From Escherichia coli (GTDB lineage Bacteria; Pseudomonadota; Gammaproteobacteria; Enterobacterales; Enterobacteriaceae): DNA of 64,000 nucleotides. Of the stretch, positions 4,726 to 64,000 are shown piece after piece. The notes under the pieces are model-generated. The model was not told the DNA's origin, made no database searches, and worked only from the letters and a program-made list of their open reading frames with translations. The stretch lies in the NCBI RefSeq assembly GCF_050320075.1, contig NZ_CP190018.1; one strand, 5' to 3'. A program made the translations under genes and the position numbers. Position 1 is the stretch's first letter, and every line of letters begins with the position of its first letter.

Positions 4726-6396
4726 ATGGCACAAGTCATTAATACCAACAGCCTCTCGCTGATCACTCAAAATAATATCAACAAGAACCAGTCTGCGCTG
4801 TCGAGTTCTATCGAGCGTCTGTCTTCTGGCTTGCGTATTAACAGCGCGAAGGATGACGCCGCAGGTCAGGCGATTGCTAACCGTTTTACTTCTAACATTA
4901 AAGGCCTGACTCAGGCTGCACGTAACGCCAACGACGGTATTTCTGTTGCACAGACCACTGAAGGCGCGCTGTCCGAAATCAACAACAACTTACAGCGTAT
5001 TCGTGAACTGACGGTTCAGGCGACGACCGGAACTAACTCCACCTCTGACCTGGACTCCATTCAGGACGAAATCAAATCCCGTCTTGATGAAATTGACCGC
5101 GTATCCGGCCAGACCCAGTTCAACGGCGTGAACGTACTGTCAAAAGATGGCTCGATGAAAATTCAGGTCGGCGCGAACGATGGTGAAACCATCACGATTG
5201 ATCTGAAAAAGATCGACTCTTCTACATTGAAGCTGACCGGTTTTAACGTGAATGGCGAAGGTGAAACAGCCAATACTGCTGCAACACTTAAAGATATGGT
5301 TGGTTTAAAACTCGATAATACGGGGGTCACTACAGCTGGAGTTAATAGATATATTGCTGACAAAGCCGTCGCAAGTAGCACGGATATTTTGAATGCGGTA
5401 GCTGGTGTTGATGGCAGTAAAGTTTCCACGGAGGCAGATGTTGGTTTTGGTGCGGCTGCCCCTGGTACGCCAGTGGAATATACTTATCATAAAGATACTA
5501 ACACATATACGGCTTCTGCTTCAGTTGATGCGACTCAACTGGCGGCATTCCTGAATCCTGAAGCGGGTGGTACCACTGCTGCAACAGTAAGTATTGGCAA
5601 CGGTACAACAGCTCAAGAGCAAAAAGTCATTATTGCTAAAGATGGTTCTTTAACTGCTGCTGATGACGGTGCCGCTCTCTATCTTGATACTAATGGTAAC
5701 TTAAGTAAAACTAACGCAGGCACTGATACTCAAGCTAAACTGTCTGACTTAATGGCAAACAATGCTAAGGCAAAAACAGTCATTACAACAGATAAAGGTA
5801 CATTTACTGCTAATACGACAAACGATGGTTTTGATGGGGTAGATATTTCTGTTGATGCTTCAACGTTTGCTAATGCCGTTAAAAATGAGACTTACACTGC
5901 AACTGTTGGTGTAACTTTACCAGCGACATATACAGTCAATAATGGCACTGCTGCATCAGCGTATTTAGTCGATGGAAAAGTGAGCCAAACTCCTGCCGAG
6001 TATTTTGCTCAAGCTGATGGCACTATTACTAGTGGTGAAAATGCGGCTACCAGTAAAGCTATCTATGTAAGTGCCAATGGTAACTTAACGACTAACACAA
6101 CGAGTGAATCTGAAGCGACTACCAACCCGCTGGCAGCATTGGATGACGCTATCGCGTCCATCGACAAATTCCGTTCATCCCTTGGTGCTATCCAGAACCG
6201 TCTGGATTCCGCGGTCACCAACCTGAACAACACCACTACCAACCTGTCCGAAGCGCAGTCCCGTATTCAGGACGCCGACTATGCGACCGAAGTGTCCAAC
6301 ATGTCGAAAGCGCAGATTATTCAGCAGGCCGGTAACTCCGTGCTGGCAAAAGCTAACCAGGTACCGCAGCAGGTTCTGTCTCTGCTGCAGGGTTAA
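4726..6396 (+). CDS. fliC: flagellin (H antigen), 556 aa with non-K-12 central domain
   Basis: Conserved flagellin N terminus ([12 protein letters not shown]...) and C terminus (...QVLSLLQG); central region differs in length and sequence from the 498-aa K-12 flagellin. Confidence 0.95.
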
Positions 6397-10694: not shown

Positions 10695-11443
10695 GTGCCA
10701 TTGAAGTTAAGAACCTGGTGAAAAAATTCCACGGTCAGACGGTGCTGCACGGTATCGACCTTGAGGTGAAGCCTGGCGAAGTGGTGGCAATTATCGGGCC
10801 AAGTGGTTCCGGCAAAACCACGTTGCTACGCAGCATAAATCTGCTGGAACAACCGGAAGCGGGAACCATCACCGTTGGCGATATCACCATTGATACTGCA
10901 CGTTCATTAAGTCAGCAAAAATCGCTGATTCGCCAGTTGCGTCAGCACGTCGGGTTTGTCTTCCAGAACTTTAATTTGTTTCCGCATCGTACGGTGCTGG
11001 AAAACATTATTGAAGGGCCGGTGATCGTCAAAGGCGAACCGAAAGAAGAGGCCACGGCGCGCGCTCGCGAGCTGCTGGCGAAAGTTGGGCTGGAAGGTAA
11101 AGAAACCAGCTATCCACGTCGTTTGTCTGGCGGTCAACAGCAGCGTGTCGCGATTGCGCGAGCGCTGGCTATGCGTCCTGAGGTGATTTTGTTTGACGAG
11201 CCAACGTCGGCGCTGGATCCAGAGCTGGTGGGCGAAGTCCTGAACACCATCCGCCAGCTGGCGCAGGAAAAGCGCACGATGGTGATTGTGACGCACGAAA
11301 TGAGCTTTGCCCGGGATGTTGCGGACCGGGCGATCTTTATGGACCAGGGGCGGATAGTCGAGCAGGGGGCCGCAAAAGCGTTATTTGCCGATCCTCAGCA
11401 GCCTCGCACCCGCCAGTTCCTCGAGAAGTTTCTGCTGCAATAA
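10691..11443 (+). CDS. tcyN: cystine ABC transporter ATP-binding protein
   Basis: 250-aa ABC ATPase (GPSGSGKTT, LSGGQQQR), 4-bp overlap with tcyL. Confidence 0.9.
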   Translation: MSAIEVKNLVKKFHGQTVLHGIDLEVKPGEVVAIIGPSGSGKTTLLRSINLLEQPEAGTITVGDITIDTARSLSQQKSLIRQLRQHVGFVFQNFNLFPHRTVLENIIEGPVIVKGEPKEEATARARELLAKVGLEGKETSYPRRLSGGQQQRVAIARALAMRPEVILFDEPTSALDPELVGEVLNTIRQLAQEKRTMVIVTHEMSFARDVADRAIFMDQGRIVEQGAAKALFADPQQPRTRQFLEKFLLQ

Positions 11444-11672
11444 TAAGAAAAAATCAGCCCCGACGATTCACCTGTCGGGGCGGGACGCCATTTCAAGCGT
11501 GATAAATCTGCTTAACAAATCAGCATAACTCATTAATAACATAAGAGAATGCGATGGCTTGCAAAAGTAATTCATTGCCTGAATAATATAAATTATATAT
11601 AAATCTTATTTATGTGATAGTTTGAATTATCATTATAAATGATACTCACTCTCAGGGGCGTTGCGGTTTACT

Positions 11673-12395
11673 ATGCAGGATACGGATTTTTTCAGCTGGC
11701 GTCGCACGATGCTGTTGCGTTTTCAGAGGATGGAGGCCGCAGAAGAGGTCTACCATGAAATAGAGCTTCAGGCTCAGCAGCTGGAGTACGATTACTATTC
11801 GTTATGTGTTCGCCACCCGGTACCATTCACGCGACCTAAAGTGGCTTTCTACACCAATTACCCTGAGGCTTGGGTTAGTTATTATCAGGCAAAAAACTTT
11901 CTCGCAATTGATCCTGTGCTGAACCCTGAAAACTTTAGTCAGGGCCATTTAATGTGGAATGATGACTTATTCAGCGAAGCACAGCCGTTATGGGAAGCCG
12001 CGCGCGCACATGGTTTACGCCGCGGTGTCACTCAGTATTTAATGCTGCCAAATCGGGCGCTGGGCTTTTTGTCCTTTTCCCGTTGCAGCACGCGCGAAAT
12101 ACCCATTCTTAGTGATGAACTGCAATTAAAAATGCAGTTACTGGTGCGAGAAAGTCTGATGGCTCTGATGCGTTTAAATGATGAAATAGTGATGACGCCA
12201 GAGATGAATTTCAGCAAGCGCGAAAAAGAAATTCTGAAATGGACGGCGGAAGGGAAGACATCAGCAGAGATAGCGATGATTTTGTCAATCTCTGAGAATA
12301 CGGTCAATTTCCATCAGAAAAACATGCAGAAAAAAATCAATGCACCAAATAAGACCCAGGTGGCCTGTTACGCGGCCGCTACTGGCTTAATTTGA
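11673..12395 (+). CDS. sdiA: LuxR-family quorum-sensing regulator SdiA
   Basis: Recognised as SdiA; start at MQDTDFFSW ATG (track ORF begins at an upstream TTG). Confidence 0.9.
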   Translation: MQDTDFFSWRRTMLLRFQRMEAAEEVYHEIELQAQQLEYDYYSLCVRHPVPFTRPKVAFYTNYPEAWVSYYQAKNFLAIDPVLNPENFSQGHLMWNDDLFSEAQPLWEAARAHGLRRGVTQYLMLPNRALGFLSFSRCSTREIPILSDELQLKMQLLVRESLMALMRLNDEIVMTPEMNFSKREKEILKWTAEGKTSAEIAMILSISENTVNFHQKNMQKKINAPNKTQVACYAAATGLI

Positions 12396-12461
12396 TCGCT
12401 TTTCTTTCTGCGTGCCAGATGCAAAAACCGGCTGAAAGGCACGCTCTCAGCCGGTTTTATA

Positions 12462-12686
12462 TTACTGACGGTAGGCTTGTTTAATTTGCTTAACCGTTTT
12501 GGAAAATACTGCAGCCTGGGTTTCGTCTTCGATCAGCGCAAGCTGTTTTTCCATCTTTAACATCACGCGGCCCGCGTCAGCTTGTCCCATCGCCTGCAGC
12601 ATCAGCGTCAGCATCGCTTTCAGGCAGGAGACTTCATTTGCCAGTTCTTGATTATTCTCGGCAGTAGAAAAATCAGGCGTACTCAT
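12462..12686 (-). CDS. yecF: uncharacterised protein YecF
   Basis: 74-aa ORF in conserved position between sdiA and uvrY. Confidence 0.8.
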
Positions 12687-13144
12687 TTATTTTCCTCGTC
12701 ATGTTGCAATGAAAATTTGCGGTGAAAAATGTTAAGGCGGCGGAGTATACCATAAGCTTTGCTAAAAATAGCAGTGGTTGTTTTTTGAGCGTGATATCGG
12801 CAGTGCTATAAAATACGTTAATATAATGACCAATAAATATTTTTATCATGAATGTTTTTTGCCCGTATTGTTCGGGTTAATTAATGTTACATATTCAGCG
12901 GGCTGATTTTCATTTTTGCTGAATAAAGTCAATTTTTGTCACATTTCATCGCAGGGCTTACAGTGAAACGATCCCGGAAGCCGTTGGTGACGGGCGTGAC
13001 CATAACTGTGGACAATCGAATTTACAAAAACGAGAGAAAAATCGAATACCCACCATTTTTAACGTTTCAAAGTTGCAATAAAAACCGCTAATATACGAAT
13101 GACTAACTATCAGTAGCGTTATCCCTATTTCTGGAGATATTCCT

Positions 13145-13801
13145 TTGATCAACGTTCTACTTGTTGATGACCACGAACTGGTGCGCGCAGGGATACGACG
13201 CATTCTGGAAGATATAAAGGGTATAAAAGTCGTCGGTGAGGCATCGTGCGGTGAAGACGCCGTTAAGTGGTGCCGGGCAAATGCCGTTGACGTGGTGCTA
13301 ATGGACATGAGTATGCCGGGCATTGGCGGTCTTGAGGCGACGCGTAAAATCGCGCGTTCCACAGCTGATGTCAAAATCATCATGCTTACCGTCCATACAG
13401 AAAACCCTTTACCAGCGAAAGTCATGCAGGCCGGTGCTGCTGGCTACCTCAGCAAAGGCGCGGCTCCGCAGGAAGTCGTGAGTGCGATCCGTTCTGTCTA
13501 TTCAGGGCAGCGTTACATTGCTTCTGACATCGCTCAACAAATGGCGTTAAGCCAGATCGAACCAGAAAAAACAGAAAGCCCATTTGCCAGTTTGTCTGAA
13601 CGTGAATTGCAGATTATGCTGATGATCACCAAGGGCCAGAAGGTCAATGAGATCTCAGAACAGCTCAATCTCAGTCCGAAAACGGTGAACAGCTACCGCT
13701 ATCGTATGTTCAGTAAACTAAACATTCATGGCGATGTTGAGCTGACTCACCTGGCAATTCGCCATGGTCTGTGTAATGCGGAGACATTATCAAGTCAGTG
13801 A
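13145..13801 (+). CDS. uvrY: response regulator UvrY (TTG start)
   Basis: 218-aa receiver + LuxR HTH protein recognised as UvrY. Confidence 0.9.
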
Positions 13802-15630
13802 GTGATCAGTTTGACGCAAAAGCGTTTTTAAAAACCGTAACCAGCCAGCCAGGCGTTTATCGCATGTATGATGCTGGTGGTACGGTTATCTATGTCGGCA
13901 AAGCGAAAGACCTGAAAAAACGGCTTTCCAGCTATTTCCGTAGCAACCTCGCTTCGCGCAAAACCGAAGCGCTGGTCGCCCAGATCCAGCAAATTGATGT
14001 AACGGTTACTCATACAGAAACCGAAGCGCTGTTGCTGGAACACAACTACATCAAACTCTATCAGCCGCGTTACAACGTTTTGCTACGCGATGATAAATCT
14101 TATCCTTTTATCTTCCTGAGTGGCGATACCCACCCGCGTCTGGCGATGCATCGTGGTGCGAAGCATGCCAAAGGTGAATATTTCGGCCCGTTCCCGAATG
14201 GCTATGCCGTACGTGAAACACTGGCGCTACTGCAAAAGATATTCCCCATTCGCCAGTGCGAAAATAGTGTTTATCGCAATCGCTCGCGTCCGTGTCTGCA
14301 ATATCAGATAGGGCGCTGTCTGGGACCGTGCGTTGAAGGACTGGTGAGTGAAGAAGAATACGCTCAGCAGGTCGAGTATGTGCGCCTGTTTTTGTCTGGC
14401 AAAGATGATCAGGTGCTTACGCAACTCATTAGCCGTATGGAAACTGCCAGCCAGAATCTGGAGTTTGAAGAAGCGGCACGTATTCGCGACCAAATTCAGG
14501 CGGTGCGACGCGTCACCGAAAAACAGTTTGTGTCCAATACCGGCGACGACCTCGACGTTATTGGTGTGGCGTTCGATGCGGGCATGGCTTGTGTCCATGT
14601 ATTGTTCATTCGTCAGGGCAAAGTGCTCGGCAGCCGCAGCTATTTCCCGAAAGTGCCTGGCGGTACGGAACTGAGCGAGGTGGTAGAAACCTTCGTAGGT
14701 CAGTTCTATTTACAAGGCAGCCAGATGCGCACCTTACCGGGTGAGATCCTGCTCGATTTTAATCTTAGCGATAAAACGCTGCTCGCCGATTCCCTTTCAG
14801 AACTGGCGGGACGCAAGATTAATGTTCAAACCAAACCTCGCGGCGATCGGGCGCGTTATCTGAAACTCGCGCGCACCAATGCGGCGACGGCCTTAACCAG
14901 CAAACTTTCGCAGCAATCTACCGTTCACCAGCGACTGACCGCGCTTGCCAGCGTGTTGAAATTGCCGGAAGTGAAGCGGATGGAGTGCTTTGACATCAGC
15001 CATACCATGGGTGAACAAACCGTCGCTTCCTGTGTGGTGTTTGATGCTAACGGCCCGCTGCGTGCGGAGTATCGGCGCTATAACATTACTGGCATCACGC
15101 CGGGCGATGATTATGCGGCGATGAATCAGGTGCTGCGTCGGCGTTATGGTAAAGCCATCGACGACAGTAAGATCCCGGATGTGATCCTTATTGACGGCGG
15201 CAAAGGCCAGCTTGCGCAGGCGAAAAATGTCTTCGCCGAACTGGATGTCTCATGGGATAAAAATCATCCGCTGCTTCTTGGCGTTGCCAAAGGTGCAGAT
15301 AGGAAGGCAGGGTTGGAAACGCTGTTCTTTGAGCCGGAAGGTGAGGGATTCAGTTTGCCGCCAGATTCTCCCGCGCTGCATGTTATCCAGCATATTCGCG
15401 ATGAATCACACGATCACGCGATTGGCGGGCACCGTAAGAAACGGGCGAAGGTCAAAAATACCAGTTCCCTGGAAACCATTGAAGGCGTCGGGCCAAAACG
15501 TCGGCAAATGTTGTTGAAATATATGGGCGGTTTGCAAGGTTTACGTAACGCCAGCGTTGAGGATATTGCAAAAGTGCCGGGTATTTCGCAAGGTCTGGCA
15601 GAAAAGATCTTCTGGTCGTTGAAACATTGA
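13798..15630 (+). CDS. uvrC: excinuclease ABC subunit C (GTG start)
   Basis: 610-aa ORF with GIY-YIG N terminus, overlapping the uvrY stop. Confidence 0.95.
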
Positions 15631-15686
15631 TGTCTCTGTAGCAACATAGGGGTAATCTTACTGACAACAGATAGTTACCCGTCATT

Positions 15687-16235
15687 ATGCAATTTAATAT
15701 CCCTACGTTGCTTACACTGTTCCGTGTCATCCTTATCCCATTCTTTGTATTGGTCTTTTATCTGCCTGTCACCTGGTCGCCGTTTGCCGCCGCGCTCATT
15801 TTCTGCGTCGCGGCGGTGACTGACTGGTTCGATGGTTTTCTGGCACGCCGCTGGAACCAGAGTACCCGGTTTGGTGCTTTCCTTGACCCTGTAGCAGATA
15901 AAGTTCTCGTGGCTATCGCCATGGTGCTGGTAACCGAGCATTATCACAGCTGGTGGGTGACCTTACCGGCAGCAACGATGATCGCCCGTGAAATTATTAT
16001 TTCTGCGCTACGCGAATGGATGGCGGAGTTGGGTAAACGCAGTAGCGTGGCTGTCTCCTGGATTGGGAAAGTGAAAACCACCGCCCAGATGGTGGCGCTG
16101 GCCTGGCTGCTGTGGCGTCCGAACATTTGGGTTGAGTACGCCGGTATTGCACTTTTCTTTGTGGCTGCGGTACTGACTCTGTGGTCAATGTTGCAATATT
16201 TGAGCGCTGCGCGTGCAGATTTGCTTGATCAGTGA
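15687..16235 (+). CDS. pgsA: CDP-diacylglycerol--glycerol-3-phosphate 3-phosphatidyltransferase
   Basis: 182-aa membrane protein recognised as PgsA. Confidence 0.95.
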
Positions 16236-16386
16236 TCGTTTCGGCGCAATTTTCAGCAAACGATCAAAAGTGGTGAAAAATATCGTTGACTCATCGCGCC
16301 AGGTAAGTAGAATGCAACGCATCGAACGGCGGCACTGATTGCCAGACGATAATAAAATCAAGTGATTAACTGATTGCTTGATGAAT

Positions 16387-16462
<76 letters not shown>

Positions 16463-21017: not shown

Positions 21018-21683
21018 ATGAAAACGGGACCGTTAAACGAAAGTGAGTTGGAATGGCTGGACGATATTCTGACCAAATACAACACTGACCACGCCATTCT
21101 TGATGTGGCGGAGCTGGACGGTTTATTGACGGCGGTGTTGAGTTCTCCGCAAGAGATTGAACCGGCACAGTGGCTGGTTGCCGTGTGGGGTGGGGCTGAC
21201 TATGTGCCACGCTGGGCGTCAGAGAAAGAGATGACGCGCTTTATGAACCTGGCTTTTCAGCATATGGCTGATACCGCAGAGCGTCTGAACGAATTCCCGG
21301 AGCAGTTTGAGCCGTTATTCGGCTTGCGAGAAGTCGATGGCAGCGAGCTGACGATTGTTGAGGAGTGGTGCTTTGGCTATATGCGGGGCGTGGCACTTTC
21401 TGACTGGTCAACGTTGCCCGATTCGTTAAAACCAGCGCTGGAGGCGATTGCGCTGCACGGTACTGAGGAAAACTTCGAGCGGTTAGAGAAGATGTCGCCA
21501 GAAGCGTTTGAAGAGAGCGTAGATGCCATTCGACTGGCGGCGCTTGATCTACATGCGTACTGGATGGCGCATCCGCAGGAAAAAGCTGTTCAGCAACCGA
21601 TCAAAGCAGAAGAGAAACCGGGGCGTAATGATCCTTGCCCGTGCGGTAGTGGTAAGAAATTTAAGCAGTGCTGCCTGCATTAA
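21018..21683 (+). CDS. yecA: SEC-C motif protein YecA
   Basis: 221-aa ORF ending in the SEC-C metal-binding motif [13 protein letters not shown]. Confidence 0.9.
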
Positions 21684-24090: not shown

Positions 24091-24414
24091 TTAGAGAAAG
24101 ACAGGGAAGGCGGAATGATGGCACTGATATGACAAAGTGAATTCCATATTCAAACATAAGGAACCCGCAAAAAGGCTACAGTTTCCTACTGGCTGACCAA
24201 AGGGGATCGCGTGGGTATAGCCTTCCTGCTGGCATGCGCGATCGGCGATCCCGCGACTGACATAACGATCGGTATGGGCATGCTGCAAAAAAGCCTGATC
24301 ATAAACCAACCGAACAATACCTGTTGCCGCGTCAACTTCGCCCACATGAGCCTGGCGAGTAACTGTGCACCCCGCCAGCGTTATTAATGAAAGAGTCAGA
24401 ATCAGAAGTCTCAT
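24091..24414 (-). CDS. yecR: lipoprotein YecR
   Basis: 107-aa ORF with lipobox LAGC. Confidence 0.8.
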   Translation of the reverse strand: MRLLILTLSLITLAGCTVTRQAHVGEVDAATGIVRLVYDQAFLQHAHTDRYVSRGIADRACQQEGYTHAIPFGQPVGNCSLFAGSLCLNMEFTLSYQCHHSAFPVFL

Positions 24415-59128: not shown

Positions 59129-59180
59129 CATCAAGGTCTAAATGCACTACATGGGCACCTAAACATATACATGTGATGTT

Positions 59181-59203
59181 GAGGTGTTAGAAAGGGGGCT
59201 GTT
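59181..59203 (-). terminator. hairpin downstream of the 306-aa minus-strand gene
   Basis: AGGGGGCTGTTCAGCCCCT inverted repeat immediately after the stop of 59219..60139. Confidence 0.35.
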
Positions 59204-59218
59204 CAGCCCCTGATAGAC

Positions 59219-60139
59219 TTAGTAATTATCCCTGACAACTTCATCATATCTTTCAATGAAGGTTAGTTGTTTATTACTTCCATTATAACTATCAACCCAT
59301 TTGTCTACAGCTTCATCGAATAGAAATAAAAAATCCGTATAATTTATATACACTACATTATCATAATATTGGGTTGGGTGACCTCTTTTACATACAGCAA
59401 TACTAAGACGTCTTTCTTTACCCTGAGTAACTTTGTGTGAATTAAGATTAGTCATGTGAAGCAATGAGTTCCTTAATTCATATAATTCGTCGGAAGTTAC
59501 TCCAAGTTTTTGTATATCTGAGTATGTATCTAACCAATTTTGAAAGACTCTTCTTTTGTTTCCAAACTCAATATAAGCTATAGTATCAATAAATGACATT
59601 AATAGCTTGAAGCTTGACAAGTAATGTTTTTTGTTAAACAGAAGCTTTATTGGTTCCATATGGTCATCATTAAGAAGTTCCTTAATGTGAAAACCATCAT
59701 CTTTCATATACTTATCAAGATAGTCTGGCAAGTCTTTTACACCTTCAATGTGATAGTTAGGTGTGTGCTTATTCCTTAATTGCTCTGACATTGATAACTG
59801 AATATCATATTGTAATTTGCCTTTAACAACGGGGGTGACTATAGCTAAAGGGTTTTCAGGTGCATTTTGAGCTTCTAATGCTAATTCAAACGGAGCAAAA
59901 GGATTACCAATCCGCAAATTTGCATTATATCTTTCAAGTGTCAATTTGTCATTTTCTAAAACAGAAGGGTGTATCCCATAAAATAAACGACAAGAAGCTA
60001 AGTCAATCTCCAAATTCCGCTTTAAAAAATCTAATTTTTGCGCATCATCGCCATCATGTTCGTGAGGTACTATTCCGGCATGTGTGATATGAACTCCATC
60101 AGGACTAAAGCAAAATATGTTGTAGATAATCTCTTTCAT
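59219..60139 (-). CDS. hypothetical protein, 306 aa, with RNxxxH (HEPN-like) motif; candidate Abi-type RNase (tentative)
   Basis: Long intact ORF in AT-rich DNA at the island edge; motif R223-N-S-L-L-H228 fits the HEPN R-x4-6-H consensus; no other recognisable domain. Confidence 0.65.
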   Translation of the reverse strand: MKEIIYNIFCFSPDGVHITHAGIVPHEHDGDDAQKLDFLKRNLEIDLASCRLFYGIHPSVLENDKLTLERYNANLRIGNPFAPFELALEAQNAPENPLAIVTPVVKGKLQYDIQLSMSEQLRNKHTPNYHIEGVKDLPDYLDKYMKDDGFHIKELLNDDHMEPIKLLFNKKHYLSSFKLLMSFIDTIAYIEFGNKRRVFQNWLDTYSDIQKLGVTSDELYELRNSLLHMTNLNSHKVTQGKERRLSIAVCKRGHPTQYYDNVVYINYTDFLFLFDEAVDKWVDSYNGSNKQLTFIERYDEVVRDNY

Positions 60140-61249
60140 ACCATTCTAACCTTCAGTGAAAATAAAGTTTTAACTATCATTAGATTATGAACAATCACAA
60201 TTGGCCTGTAAATAACAGGGCATAAACAGGTTCGTTTAGCTTGATTTTATCACTATAACTGTCTGATTTAACGGTAACTCACCAAGTATACACACAGTAA
60301 TTACACAATCCTGTTATTATGTAACTTATTGAAATATATAAATAATTTTTACATTCTTTGTTTGGGGTAAGCTGTGTAATGTTAGTCGTCCCTCTCCAGA
60401 CACTATATATAGTGCTATATACAGGACTATATAACGATATATAGATGTTTGGTCACATGGTATAACTATCAAACCACTTAACGATTTCCTACGTGAAAGT
60501 TAGAAAGTGATAGTTATAGTTACCTTGTCAAATCTTCGTAGTCCCTTCTTAAAAAATCGTGAAAGGTAATCTTGTTATCTATACAGAATCTACGTAGATG
60601 CTTCTTAGTGCGCAAAACAGCTATTATGTTAAAAACGCACTGTATACGTATCAGTACTGATTTATAAGGGTTTTGTGTATTGGCTGATAAGAGGCTATAC
60701 AGCACCTTGAGAGCATGTCTTCTAAGTCATTGACATATAAGGTCACAGAAGTTTGTAGCTGTTACAGAGAAAACTGGATAGGACTTCACAGAACTATAAA
60801 ATGTTACAGCTATTGATAGGTGAAATCTTCTTGATAGATGCTTTGAAGTGTGGTGAAGGCTTTTTGAGGTGGGGCTAAACAGATATCATGAAGAAAGTCA
60901 ATAGTTGATTCGGTTTATCGAATAAACCTCATAGATATTTTAAAATTCTGCAAAGGGGGTCACATAGCTGGTGTGACGGGTACTTAGCAGCTACAGACAT
61001 CTATCAGATATTTTTGAAGATTTTTAGAAGGGGAATTTGAAGAGGGGCTACTACGATTTTATAAAAATTTTCAGATTCTGAAAAGTTACTGTACAGAATA
61101 TGTACAGATATCTTTAAAGTATCTGTAAAAACTTTTAAGATAAAAGATAGATATCCCAGAAAGGATATCCGTTTAGAAAACCTATTAAGTATCTCTTAAA
61201 AGAGAGTAAACCTTGTCAAGAGTGATTGCAATAAAAATTTTTATTTCTT
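60140..61249. other. 1.1 kb AT-rich ORF-free region with clustered short repeats and palindromes (divergent control region, origin or ncRNA locus)
   Basis: No ORF above 61 aa; recurring TACAG/GATAG-containing motifs; palindrome GTCACAtagctggTGTGAC at ~60959..60977; CTATATATAG-type repeats at ~60400..60445. Confidence 0.5.
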
Positions 61250-61912
61250 ATGTCAATTGAGTGTATTTTAATCGGGAAACATCATGGGGGTTCTGATTAC
61301 TGGAGAACTCCATTTTTGTTATTTAAGAACTTACACCGTGAATTTATTTTCAGTCTGGATGGTGCTGCAACTAAGCACGATACGTTATTACCCCGCTTTA
61401 CGGATGATATTCACAATCAGTCATGGGATGGTGAACGGGTATTCTGTAACCCACCATACAGCGACACTAAAACATTCCTCGTAAAAGCGTCTGAGGCAGA
61501 TTTATCGGTATTCCTGATACCGTACCGACCCCAAACCATATACTGGCTTAAGCACATCTTCACAAACCCGCTTTGCCATGAAATCCGTATTCTTCATCGT
61601 GCAGTTAAATACCTTCCACCAGCAGGGCATAACAGGCTTACTATTAGGTCGCCGTTTCCAAGTGCAGTCGTTGTTTTTAAAAAAGAACCACGCAGGCATG
61701 AAATTACGCAGATGGTTTGCTGTGCTGATACATTGCTACCGTTAACCATCATTAACAGAGGAGGCTTGAGAGGAAGGCCCACCATTTACCCACCTGAGAC
61801 GCTCGACAGCTTCATAAAACTATACAGGCAAGGCAAACCCATTAAGTGCATTGCAGATGCTCTCAGAATGCCTCTGAGCACGTCATACAGGATTGCTCAA
61901 AGGTTGAGCTAG
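61250..61912 (+). CDS. phage Dam-like DNA N6-adenine methyltransferase with C-terminal HTH-like segment
   Basis: DYWRTPFLLF ... FSLDGAA ... CNPPYSD (motif IV N/DPPY) typical of phage N6-A MTases; C-terminal IKCIADALRMPLSTSYRIAQRL looks helix-turn-helix; start codon uncertain. Confidence 0.6.
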   Translation: MSIECILIGKHHGGSDYWRTPFLLFKNLHREFIFSLDGAATKHDTLLPRFTDDIHNQSWDGERVFCNPPYSDTKTFLVKASEADLSVFLIPYRPQTIYWLKHIFTNPLCHEIRILHRAVKYLPPAGHNRLTIRSPFPSAVVVFKKEPRRHEITQMVCCADTLLPLTIINRGGLRGRPTIYPPETLDSFIKLYRQGKPIKCIADALRMPLSTSYRIAQRLS

Positions 61913-62276
61913 AATTCTCATAAATATGGTCATTTACAAGACAGGTGATTTAGATATTAAGAGGTATCCCTGTGAACAATAAATGACCAATCAGTAATTA
62001 TCCTGTGAAATAATTGTTGCAATTTATAATCACACATGGTATAGTTTCATAGTGGACTGATAAAAAAGTTCATGTCTTGAAGTGGTAACACTTGGGGAGG
62101 TGTCAGATGATTGACGTATATTAACCTCTCATTCATGGTAATACCTCAGCGTTTTAATCATCGTACTGTTTCAGGCATGGACTTCTTTATCAGTCCATCA
62201 ATCCCCCAGATATTTTAATCACACAGGCTAATCGGTTTTATCCGGTTGGCCTTTTCACGTATGAGGTAATTTATGA

Positions 62277-63245
62277 ATGAAAAAAGAAACTAATGCTTTT
62301 ATTATGGTAGATAAACGAGTTGCACAATTCCCTAAAACATTAAAGCCAATTGACCGCTTGGTATATTTCACTATGCTGGATGGTGCTGATTATTACGAAT
62401 CTAAGTTCGGGAGATACGCACCAAGTATTGACTATTTGATGGTTATGTCTGGTGCTACACGTAATACAGTTATTGATTCACTTAAGAGACTTGAGTCACA
62501 CAGACTTATCGAAAAGACCAATGTAAAGGGTCAGCAAAGTATTTTTAAAGTATTCACGTTGGATGAGCGTCCAGAGGTCTTATCAGAACCTACCCTTGAT
62601 GAGCGTCGTAGAGCTAAATTATCAGGTCAACCAGAATCTGACAGTAACCCAACCAAAAATTGGTTACCTACCCAACCAGAATTTGGTTACCTACCTAACC
62701 AGAATTTGGTTACATGTAATACTGAATATAAAGACAAAAATATAAATACTGAAGAAGAAAGACTAAAAGGGAACTTTGAAGAAGAATCTCTTAAGAAGGG
62801 AGCTTCGCTCTGTGATTCACATGAATGTGATATTAAAGAAGATGACTTTCTTTCTTTGGATGAATTAAATGATTTTCTCTCTATGAATGAATCTGGCCTT
62901 GATAGTGAAGCTACTAAAGAGGCTGTTAAAAAGGAAGATAAAATCTCTGATGTGAATATCGATAGTGACCATAAAAACACACAGTGCCCCGCCACTGATG
63001 ATGAGATGGACCCCTTCGATGATTACCTTGATGAAGAGTCAGAGCGTGAAAAAGCCATTAAGAGGGTAGAGAAGAAAAAGAGATTCGAGCTTGCAAGACA
63101 AAAGAACAAAGTATCGGGTTTAGACCCATTCGATGACAGTGACGATGATGACTTTTCTTTCACACCAAGAAAGAAACAAACTCAGGATGACAAGAAGCAA
63201 AAAATTAAACCGAAGATGTATTTTGCTGGTGGAGGTATGCGCTAA
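62277..63245 (+). CDS. winged-helix DNA-binding protein with long acidic low-complexity tail (replication-initiator/regulator-like)
   Basis: N-terminal ~95 aa resemble phage Rep/replisome-organiser winged helix; C-terminal two-thirds D/E/K-rich with a twice-repeated DPFDD motif. Confidence 0.55.
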   Translation: MKKETNAFIMVDKRVAQFPKTLKPIDRLVYFTMLDGADYYESKFGRYAPSIDYLMVMSGATRNTVIDSLKRLESHRLIEKTNVKGQQSIFKVFTLDERPEVLSEPTLDERRRAKLSGQPESDSNPTKNWLPTQPEFGYLPNQNLVTCNTEYKDKNINTEEERLKGNFEEESLKKGASLCDSHECDIKEDDFLSLDELNDFLSMNESGLDSEATKEAVKKEDKISDVNIDSDHKNTQCPATDDEMDPFDDYLDEESEREKAIKRVEKKKRFELARQKNKVSGLDPFDDSDDDDFSFTPRKKQTQDDKKQKIKPKMYFAGGGMR

Positions 63246-63541
63246 TGAAAGAATATCACGGTGAAAAGAGATACAAAGATTACCTGTTAAAGCGTTATAG
63301 CATTTCTCGTGAAGGCCACTTAATGAAGGATACTCACGGGGAAGTTTACCGGATTAGACCGAAGAAAGAAGGGAGGGATTATTTCTTTTACGATGGTGTG
63401 ACAGATTTAAAGATTGATGCTTTGAAGTTTGCGGCGCTGTATCATTATGATATCTGGGACTCAGTCCACCAGCTACGATTAAAAGACGGTGACCCCGGTA
63501 ATCTGAGGGCCACCAATATTATCAAGGGAAAGTGCCGGTAA
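63245..63541 (+). CDS. small HNH-like endonuclease-domain protein (tentative)
   Basis: 98-aa ORF translationally coupled (ATGA overlap) to the upstream gene; VHQLRLKDGDPGNLRATNI resembles the HNH_3 H-x-DG-x-NL-x-T pattern. Confidence 0.4.
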   Translation: MKEYHGEKRYKDYLLKRYSISREGHLMKDTHGEVYRIRPKKEGRDYFFYDGVTDLKIDALKFAALYHYDIWDSVHQLRLKDGDPGNLRATNIIKGKCR

Positions 63542-63799
63542 GTCCACCAGCTATTTATTTATTGAAATCTCTATCTCAACACGAAGAAGTTTAAGTCGAA
63601 TTGTAAGCTTTGTCTTTTTTGTAATGACTCGATTCATAACGCAAAACACCAATAGCACAATAAATACCGCAAAGCCCAACGAGCTAAAACGATGAGATTC
63701 AATAATTGCTGTGAAAAAATCATGCATTAATTTTCCTTTTGCGAAAGGAAACAGCACCTGTATCAGCCCCTATAACCATAATATCATGTAAATGAGATG

Positions 63800-63828
63800 T
63801 TGACAATATGTTAAATAAATGTTATGAT
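63800..63828 (+). promoter_or_regulatory. near-consensus sigma70 promoter
   Basis: TTGACA-N17-TATGAT followed by AAGGAG Shine-Dalgarno and ATG at 63866. Confidence 0.5.
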
Positions 63829-63865
63829 TGTAGTATGAGTAAGAGATTTAAGGAGATTTTTACAA

Positions 63866-64000
63866 TGACTCACACAGTTACGCGCCTTTTGCCAGAGGCA
63901 TTTGAACGACTGGCAGCAATCAAAGCCAAATATCCCGATATGAAGCACACAGCGCTTGTTGGAGAGCTTTTAAAAGAGTCGGTAACCCTGACCCCTTTCG
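63866..64000 (+). CDS. ribbon-helix-helix-like DNA-binding protein, 5' portion only (runs off window end)
   Basis: MTHTVTRLLPEAFERLAAIKAKYPDMKHTALVGELLKE has the beta-strand then helix pattern of RHH/CopG/antitoxin-type proteins; strong promoter and SD upstream. Confidence 0.4.

Follow-up and report, generated by a model that had tools for sequence, protein, structure and literature searches.

Non-coding DNA of an Escherichia coli integrative island resembles the genome-end junction of Felix O1-like phages and may be a satellite packaging signal

The satellite P4 shares a cos site with its helper P2, the cos-type Staphylococcus aureus pathogenicity islands (SaPIs) as well as phage-inducible chromosomal islands (PICIs) carry the cos site of their helpers, and the helper terminase processes the satellite DNA. 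In T7/T3-type phages, which have exact terminal repeats, the concatemer-junction signal is located around the repeat end, and recognition elements flank the cut. The phage-inducible chromosomal island-like element (PLE) of Vibrio cholerae carries an 89-bp mimic of the pac site of phage ICP1, which is 71% identical to the phage sequence, includes a 14-bp identical core and is required for transduction (Boyd & Seed 2024, 10.1101/2024.04.22.590561). Here we analyze a 1110-nt non-coding stretch of Escherichia coli DNA, positions 60140-61249 of a 64,000-nt sequence (hereafter the region and the window, respectively; coordinates are those of the window unless another sequence is named), which is located in a ~12.2 kb island that splits the yecE gene, with the yecE halves on both sides. 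The reading that we favor, with reasonable although far from complete confidence, is that the region is the non-coding cis-acting hub of this ~12 kb integrative element, which would be satellite-like toward the strictly lytic Felix O1-like phages (Felixounavirus) and would mimic the packaging/cleavage site of its helper. Because part of the region copies phage genome-end DNA, the island is probably a satellite that is packed into Felix O1-type particles.

Comparison of the family members divides the region into four parts, among which part C (60931-61106, plus strand) appears to be a mimic of the right junction of the direct terminal repeat (DTR) of Felixounavirus. When the region was used as the query of a sensitive DNA search, 222 of 50,697 phage records were retrieved, with E-values down to 3e-8; Felix O1-like phages (members of Felixounavirus and related phages) account for nearly all of these, and the matches in the listed records fall in unannotated DNA. 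When the whole island was compared with phage AYO145A, two non-coding matches were detected besides the tape-measure and distal-tail (Dit) genes, and the segment 60934-61096 aligns with AYO145A positions 15808-15971, straddling the right DTR end. Part C is ~72% identical to the phage junction DNA and contains the same four blocks at the same distances, namely GATATTTTAAAATTCTGCAAAGGGGG (60934-60959), the cut-site block GGGTACTTAGCAG (60978-60990; the phage equivalent is GGGCTACCAAGCAG), with predicted cleavage near 60984/60985, CAGATATTTTTGA (61005-61017) and TTTTATAAAAATTTTCAGATTCTGAAAAGTTAC (61057-61089). The 14-mer ATTTTAAAATTCTG is present in exactly two copies in the 87 kb phage genome, 130 nt apart and one on each side of the DTR end; in the island, ATTTTAAAATTCTG at 60937 and ATTTTCAGATTCTG at 61067 are likewise 130 nt apart. 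The cut block is offset from the first 14-mer by +40 in the phage and +41 in the island, and CAGATATTTTTGA by +68 in both. The blocks hardly vary among five island types and 12 phages, whereas the DNA between them diverges. Just past the DTR end or cut, an identical 25-nt insertion, ATGAGGTAGATTCTACCGAATCAAC, is present in the island variant L012 (~13640-13665) and in the phage L016 (~5080-5105), which points to exchange between island and phage at this very spot. Part C is found in 535 of the 5426 complete E. coli genomes (~10%), always in the chromosome and never annotated, and is the piece that is retained in every island variant examined. Judging by this similarity, part C is a candidate cis-acting packaging signal related to that of the putative helper phage.

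The phage counterpart of part C can be placed on the phage genome with some precision. Felixounavirus genomes contain a gene-free stretch of ~1.55 kb between convergent terminators, and six deposited genomes begin at one and the same base within it. Alignment of the start and the end of two of these six genomes reveals a DTR of ~579 nt at both ends, which begins with GCCCCCTTAAC and ends with ...GATGTTAAGGGCTACC; the terminal junction motif is ...GGGCTACC. The genome ends of phage UAB_Phi87 have been measured, with a repeat of 608 bp and two SpeI fragments, of 2819 and 4322 bp, that are sensitive to Bal31 (PMC4837284). The same sequence boundaries applied to UAB_Phi87 delimit a repeat of 614 nt and predict SpeI end fragments of 2747 and 4435 bp, within about 100 bp of the measured values. 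The counterpart of part C thus coincides with the physical genome end, both in the six records and in UAB_Phi87. An annotated repeat of phage PC79-13 was also considered as evidence on the ends and was rejected, being a 127-nt assembly overlap that says nothing about physical ends. The phage end region as a whole (AYO145A 14879-16433, locus L002:2072-3626) is without annotation in most records and densely filled with short same-strand repeats, in which TGTTAAG/CTTGTTAG occurs ~14-20 times, in addition to CTATAAAG; one motif is present in inverted orientation at the left and right DTR ends, as TAGCCCCCTTAAC and GTTAAGGGCTA.

Compared by description rather than by sequence (the phage similarity detected here being to Felixounavirus only), PLE and the E. 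coli island resemble each other as chromosomal elements in the same range of sizes, with a large serine recombinase and a strictly lytic myovirus partner. Both contain a non-coding stretch ~71-72% identical to the packaging region of the helper, with an identical core of 14 bp in PLE and 25-26 bp in the E. coli island, and in both the mimic is conserved throughout the family and is embedded in a long non-coding stretch close to the replication module. In contrast to PLE, the partner of the E. coli island has exact terminal repeats, such that the junction at the DTR end would be copied rather than a headful pac site, and the island also carries tape-measure and distal-tail genes; the mimicry has been demonstrated experimentally for PLE and is inferred for the island. 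With P4 and the cos-type islands, our island shares the carriage of the packaging/cleavage sequence of the helper in cis, but those systems involve cos sites, cohesive ends and temperate helpers, and encode tyrosine recombinases where the island encodes a serine recombinase. Their marker genes are absent as well: searches of the island proteins against PHROGs, NCBIfam, PADLOC and Pfam yielded none of the markers of P4 (Sid, Psu, Delta and alpha-primase), PICIs (tyrosine integrase, AlpA and Pri-Rep) or capsid-forming PICIs (capsid, portal, protease and TerS). With regard to T7 and T3, the two 14-mers located 130 nt apart around the junction fit the flanking recognition elements of these phages, but there is no sequence relationship, and the roles of the Felix O1-like blocks in recognition and cleavage are putative.

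Several other features fit a satellite. The element is a discrete island with its own integrase that occupies defined sites, has no recognizable virion-building set, encodes its own replication module and contains a cis signal related by sequence similarity to that of the helper. No matches to capsid, portal or terminase proteins were obtained for the island proteins in PHROGs, NCBIfam and Pfam, several small proteins remaining unassigned, and the same databases returned no phage-like structural genes besides those for the TMP_3 and Dit_like proteins. Not a single GATC tetranucleotide is present in the island (0 in 12.2 kb compared to 51 expected), in AYO145A (0 in 87 kb compared to 293 expected) or in ~90 kb of other Felixounavirus genomes (the phage loci used in the count were L003, L014-L016, L019, L021, L022, L025, L026 and L063), whereas the adjacent chromosome contains a normal number, 258 in 59 kb. 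The GC content is 32.9% in the region, 38.6% in the whole island, 39.0% in AYO145A and 49.8% in the chromosome; the low GC is a property of the whole island that is not confined to the region. The shared absence of GATC, together with the similar GC content, further supports the helper relationship. Under the proposed scenario, the island would excise upon infection and replicate from its own origin; the helper terminase would recognize part C in the replicated island DNA and cut near 60984/60985; and the cut DNA would be packaged into helper-derived particles. Through part D of the region, transcription running leftward over part C would be tied to the program of the phage itself.

Several observations weigh against this scenario. 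The evidence comes from sequences, and induction, cleavage and packaging are all inferred. A counterpart of the left DTR end was not found in the island (the best local score was 23, compared to a mean of 20 and a maximum of 29 for shuffled sequences), and the dominant repeat of the phage end region, TGTTAAG/CTTGTTAG, is not reproduced there. Given that part B lacks a phage counterpart and is missing from some variants, the explanation is firm for only about 320 of the 1110 nt. The position of the cut may be off by tens of bases because the phage ends were placed from deposited records and a single experimental paper, and the 12 kb of the island would have to be accommodated in a head that takes 87 kb. 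No island-sized contigs ending at part C were found in IMG/VR or in the metagenomes searched: the IMG/VR matches to the junction pattern are all contigs of Felixounavirus size (84-90 kb), except for one of 62 kb, and the sole IMG/VR match to the core is an integrated copy. Among six contigs of roughly island length that were mapped in detail, none ends at the predicted cut, the ends of the other contigs being only estimated from the position of the pattern. Among the 28 contigs that a scan of metagenome contigs yielded, one, L033 (CYGL01000620.1, GCA_001292545.1), which comes from an isolate draft assembly, is circularly permuted with respect to the integrated island. In this contig of 12,790 nt, positions 1-1486 recur at 11256-12742 with 99.4% identity (that is, 1.5 kb is present at both ends), and the unit thus measures 11,255 nt; there is no cargo gene, the recombinase gene directly abuts the non-coding region, and the island ends are joined. 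The contig could stem from a free circle, from a concatemer or from a tandem copy; the joined ends are a possible hint at activity, but they could also reflect tandem integration rather than a free circle.

Part D (61107-61249, minus strand) is a copy of another piece of non-coding phage DNA, the divergent promoter/5' untranslated region (5'UTR) of Felix O1 genes 40-41 (AYO145A orf044/orf045). The 5'UTR-like stretch, 61132-61189, is 86% identical over 58 nt to AYO145A 24261-24316 (inverted) and to Felix O1 21578-21633. Within it, the hairpin GATATCC-CAGAAA-GGATATC at 61150-61169 precedes, on the minus strand, a T tract and is terminator-like. Upstream on the minus strand lies a putative leftward promoter that aims into part C, with the -35 element TTGCAA (61226-61231), a 15-nt spacer and the -10 element TTTACT (the complement of 61205-61210); it resembles the Felix O1 promoter P41, TTGACA-N15-TATAGG (Whichard 2010, PMC3185647). 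Unlike part C, part D is confined to the island type that encodes Dam and Rep. Together, parts C and D amount to about 320 nt copied from non-coding DNA of Felix O1-like phages.

Part B (60322-60930) is the conserved non-coding core of the island family. The segment 60600-60910 is present at 88-100% identity in 291 of the 5426 complete E. coli genomes, with a very conserved block at about 60607-60905, and CTATATA/TATATAG repeats with a 12-nt period are located at 60402-60445, including CTATATATAG (60403-60412) and GATATATAG (60436-60444). The resemblance of part B to the phage is limited to a 28-nt TATATAG stretch; the phage end region and the region analyzed here are both enriched, on the same strand, in the motif CTATA[ACT]A[AG] and in TACAG, these motifs having been picked after the sequences were viewed. 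In some variants, a small serine recombinase gene stands in for part B; the possibility that part B is a decayed copy of such a gene was considered and rejected (tblastn E>0.5). Rfam gave no match anywhere in the region at E<=1, and on both strands of 60600-60910 (311 nt) the predicted folding was no better than that of shuffled sequences (z-scores of +0.25 and -0.18). The changes among relatives in the one candidate stem that was inspected are non-compensatory, a comparison with little power because the family members are 88-100% identical in part B. Part B can be regarded as selected, island-specific non-coding DNA, which may serve as the element's own terminal-repeat or recognition segment or as a control region.

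The origin of replication of the island is probably located outside the region, inside the gene for the replication initiator (rep; 62277..63245, plus strand). The 322-aa protein contains an N-terminal HTH domain and is lambda-O-like (PHROGs 270, 428 and 678; weak Pfam match to HTH_36). The gene includes three iterons of 23-24 bp at 62646-62715, each with the inverted repeat AACCA-N5-TGGTT (tandem repeat period 23, 2.9 copies, 93% matches), followed by an AT-rich stretch that extends to about 62760, so that the predicted origin spans 62646-62760. The lambda origin lies inside the O gene, and the island rep likewise holds iterons with an internal inverted repeat and then an AT-rich stretch. The region contains no comparable iteron array, only short low-scoring repeats, and no DnaA boxes; since the iterons lie in rep, 1.4 kb outside the region, the region itself is probably not the origin.

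These data allow an assessment of what the region had initially been thought to be. The original prediction, made from the letters of the window and a list of its open reading frames (ORFs), held that the 1.1 kb are more than a spacer and offered three interpretations: an origin with iterons, an abundant structured non-coding RNA or a multi-operator control region. That the region is functional, selected non-coding DNA is borne out by the 88-100% identity of part B in 291 genomes and the presence of part C in 535. The iteron origin is not supported for the region, given that the sole iteron-like array is the one in rep and that the region is free of iterons and DnaA boxes, and neither is the structured RNA, in view of the lack of an Rfam match, z-scores close to zero and a stem without compensatory changes. 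Parts B and D may yet be a multi-operator control region.

Other explanations of the phage-like DNA have to be weighed against the packaging mimic. Parts C and D, and perhaps B, could be copies of phage promoters or operators that sense infection, with phage-encoded or phage-modified transcription factors timing the expression of the island genes (Dam, rep and others) or of a leftward transcript, in which case the likeness of part C to the DTR junction would be incidental. The homology of part D to a mapped phage promoter/5'UTR, with TTGCAA-N15-TTTACT and the hairpin/T tract preserved, is in line with this explanation, as are the A/T-rich -10-like elements of part C (including a minus-strand site at 61084..61056), the lack of an obvious promoter of the Dam gene itself within 18 nt of part D, and the presence of other phage intergenic pieces in other island variants. 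However, the phage counterpart of part C lies between convergent terminators, where there is no gene to serve, the conserved blocks take in the exact DTR end, and the two 14-mers flank the cut at identical spacing. We therefore consider infection sensing as the whole explanation to be rather unlikely; it is compatible with a packaging role and is most plausible for part D. The chance that part C mimics a phage replication origin or a replisome-loading site, and would recruit the replication machinery of the helper, appears small. The phage end region is indeed gene-free and repeat-rich, and variants without rep carry a copy of the phage CCNNN array located between orf090 and the ligase gene, which indicates that copying of phage cis elements other than the genome end does occur; nevertheless, the island type analyzed here encodes an initiator itself, with iterons plus an AT-rich stretch in rep, part C is devoid of DnaA boxes and iterons, and the similarity is centered on the DTR boundary.

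Part B, with or without part C, could be transcribed into a long functional non-coding RNA, for example an immunity or anti-phage RNA, and the 88-100% conservation of part B without any ORF, the strand bias of the TACAG motifs, the P41-like promoter aimed into the region and promoter-like sites on the plus strand all speak in favor of such a transcript. Yet Rfam has no match, the folding energy equals that of shuffled sequences on either strand, the candidate stem has accumulated non-compensatory changes and several variants do without part B, which makes an RNA very unlikely. It is harder still to credit that the island is a dead phage-derived fragment and the region a degenerating spacer with leftover similarity. 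Some copies do contain insertion sequence (IS) insertions, frameshifts or internal stops, but the same 11-12 kb architecture with intact genes recurs at three or more integration sites, the conservation is block-wise with the spacing kept, GATC is wholly absent over 12 kb, the conservation of the non-coding DNA equals or exceeds that of the coding genes, and in one contig the island ends are joined.

If the packaging mimic is real, it has a wider meaning. Felix O1-like phages are the classic typing phages of Salmonella and E. coli and are common in biocontrol and therapy cocktails, so that a satellite residing in ~10% of the complete genomes of E. coli could reduce the yield of phage, disseminate cargo genes via phage lysates and explain differences in susceptibility between strains. 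The PLE/ICP1 pair in Vibrio is so far the only well-studied case of a satellite of a lytic phage, to which lytic coliphages and packaging by terminal repeats would be added; no satellite strategy for terminal-repeat packaging is described in the literature that we searched, nor was a satellite of Felix O1 or Ounavirinae phages found there, with coverage that is incomplete, such that an earlier description is possible. The blocks of part C provide a testable map of the still-undefined Felixounavirus packaging signal. In our estimate, the odds are about even for the broader proposition that a previously undescribed satellite family of strictly lytic Felix O1-like phages resides in approximately a tenth of the complete E. 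coli genomes, which would be the first to copy an exact-terminal-repeat junction for cutting and packaging, would bring its own tape-measure and distal-tail proteins, would have been purged of GATC like its helper, and would possess in part B a new kind of non-coding determinant specific to satellites, such as a terminal repeat or a recognition array of its own.

The genes on either side of the region are located at 59219-60139 (minus strand) and 61250-61912 (plus strand), and a protein-coding role for the region itself was examined and rejected. The longest ORF within 60140-61249 encodes 61 aa from a GTG start, as anticipated by the original prediction, which had seen no credible ORF in the 1.1 kb. 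In an alignment of 25 family members, no open reading frame in the region exceeds 37 codons, RefSeq has no annotation in the region in identical or related genomes, and the gap is free of gene calls in the ten loci returned for the neighboring gene (mostly NCBI assemblies). The recurrent TACAG motifs on which attention was initially drawn are real and enriched (12 in the region, P<0.0005, compared to the 3.0 that a first-order Markov model of the region predicts), the positions initially listed being 1-11 nt off: the plus strand has them at 60420, 60582, 60698, 60763, 60805, 60992, 61092 and 61103, the minus strand at 60206, 60640, 61089 and 61123. TATATAG is found five times compared to 0.5 expected. 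The repeats reported near 60400-60445 and the palindrome GTCACAtagctggTGTGAC at 60959-60977 are likewise present as sequence. The palindrome is not special per se, 6-bp arms being commonplace and 38 inverted pairs being present in 1.2 kb; it is a type-specific spacer within part C, and neither the other island variants nor the phage have the same spacer sequence. At 61077..61129 on the plus strand, between parts C and D, there is an array of TGTACAG/CTGTAAA-like units with an 11-nt period (Tandem Repeats Finder: 4.7 copies, 67% matches, low score), which includes inverted repeats, among them the palindrome CTGTACAG at 61089-61096; CTGTACAGAATATGTACAGATATC occupies 61089-61112. Part A (60140-60321) is a variable spacer that changes with the cargo gene, family similarity beginning only at 60322, and contains a sigma-70-like site, TTTACA-N17-CATAAT, at 60212..60184 on the minus strand, which faces the cargo gene.

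The island occupies positions 59132-64000 of the window and continues past its end; the full extent is L001:13993-26226. From left to right, it consists of a variable cargo gene, the non-coding region, the gene for a Dam-like methylase, the gene for the 322-aa initiator, genes for several small unassigned proteins and a 234-aa coiled-coil protein, the tape-measure and distal-tail genes, and, at one island end, the gene for a large serine recombinase of 507 aa. In other genomes, the same architecture with related recombinases is found at yciI-tonB and ymdF-wrbA. The region is 100% identical in E. coli strain YZLc1-3. Relatives of the region were not found on plasmids, tblastn detected no phage relatives of the rep protein, and the exact 22-nt core pattern had no match in other species (one genome per species); beyond E. 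coli, Escherichia albertii was the only species that the Dit protein retrieved as a query, in a contig that stops before the non-coding region.

The cargo gene at the left island end (59219..60139, minus strand) encodes a 306-aa protein of no recognizable family, with no match in Pfam, NCBIfam or PADLOC. The cargo slot, bounded by the left attachment site and the non-coding region, is variable (as seen in L009, L011, L012, L013, L059, L060 and L067) and contains unrelated unassigned genes (306, 221 and 277 aa), a gene for an AP2/ERF-domain protein or genes for small serine recombinases (Resolvase + HTH_7); none of the cargo-slot genes matched PADLOC defence models. On the other side of the region, the gene at 61250..61912 (plus strand) encodes a Dam-like N6-adenine DNA methyltransferase (phrog_111; PADLOC orphan methyltransferase; Pfam PF05869 Dam; TIGR01712 below the cut-off); thus, an island without any GATC nonetheless encodes a Dam-family methylase.

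Beyond the right end of the window, the 234-aa coiled-coil protein (L001:20498-21202), encoded just upstream of the tape-measure gene, is kept in all variants. Some RefSeq records call it a "transposase", for which Pfam gives no support, with only a weak match to DUF7384; a role in capsid or tail assembly would be a guess. The tape-measure protein (710 aa, TMP_3) and the distal-tail protein (257 aa, Dit_like), encoded at L001:21533-24602, are homologous to AYO145A orf068 and orf069, with 78% nucleotide identity here and 91% in the variants L010 and L012. The tape-measure protein has conserved ends and a diverged middle; the Dit gene of L010 and L012 is 91% identical to that of the phage, which suggests recent exchange.

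A second type of island (L011:12877-15407, L010:13001-15576 and L012) lacks the Dam and rep genes and instead has ~2.5 kb without an annotated gene, for which, in L011, Rfam gave no match. This stretch contains a 95-nt tandem duplication and a copy of a pentamer-phased CCNNN array, the source of which in the phage lies between orf090 and the DNA ligase gene (AYO145A 60286-60509); judging by the sequence, the copy may mimic a phage replication element.

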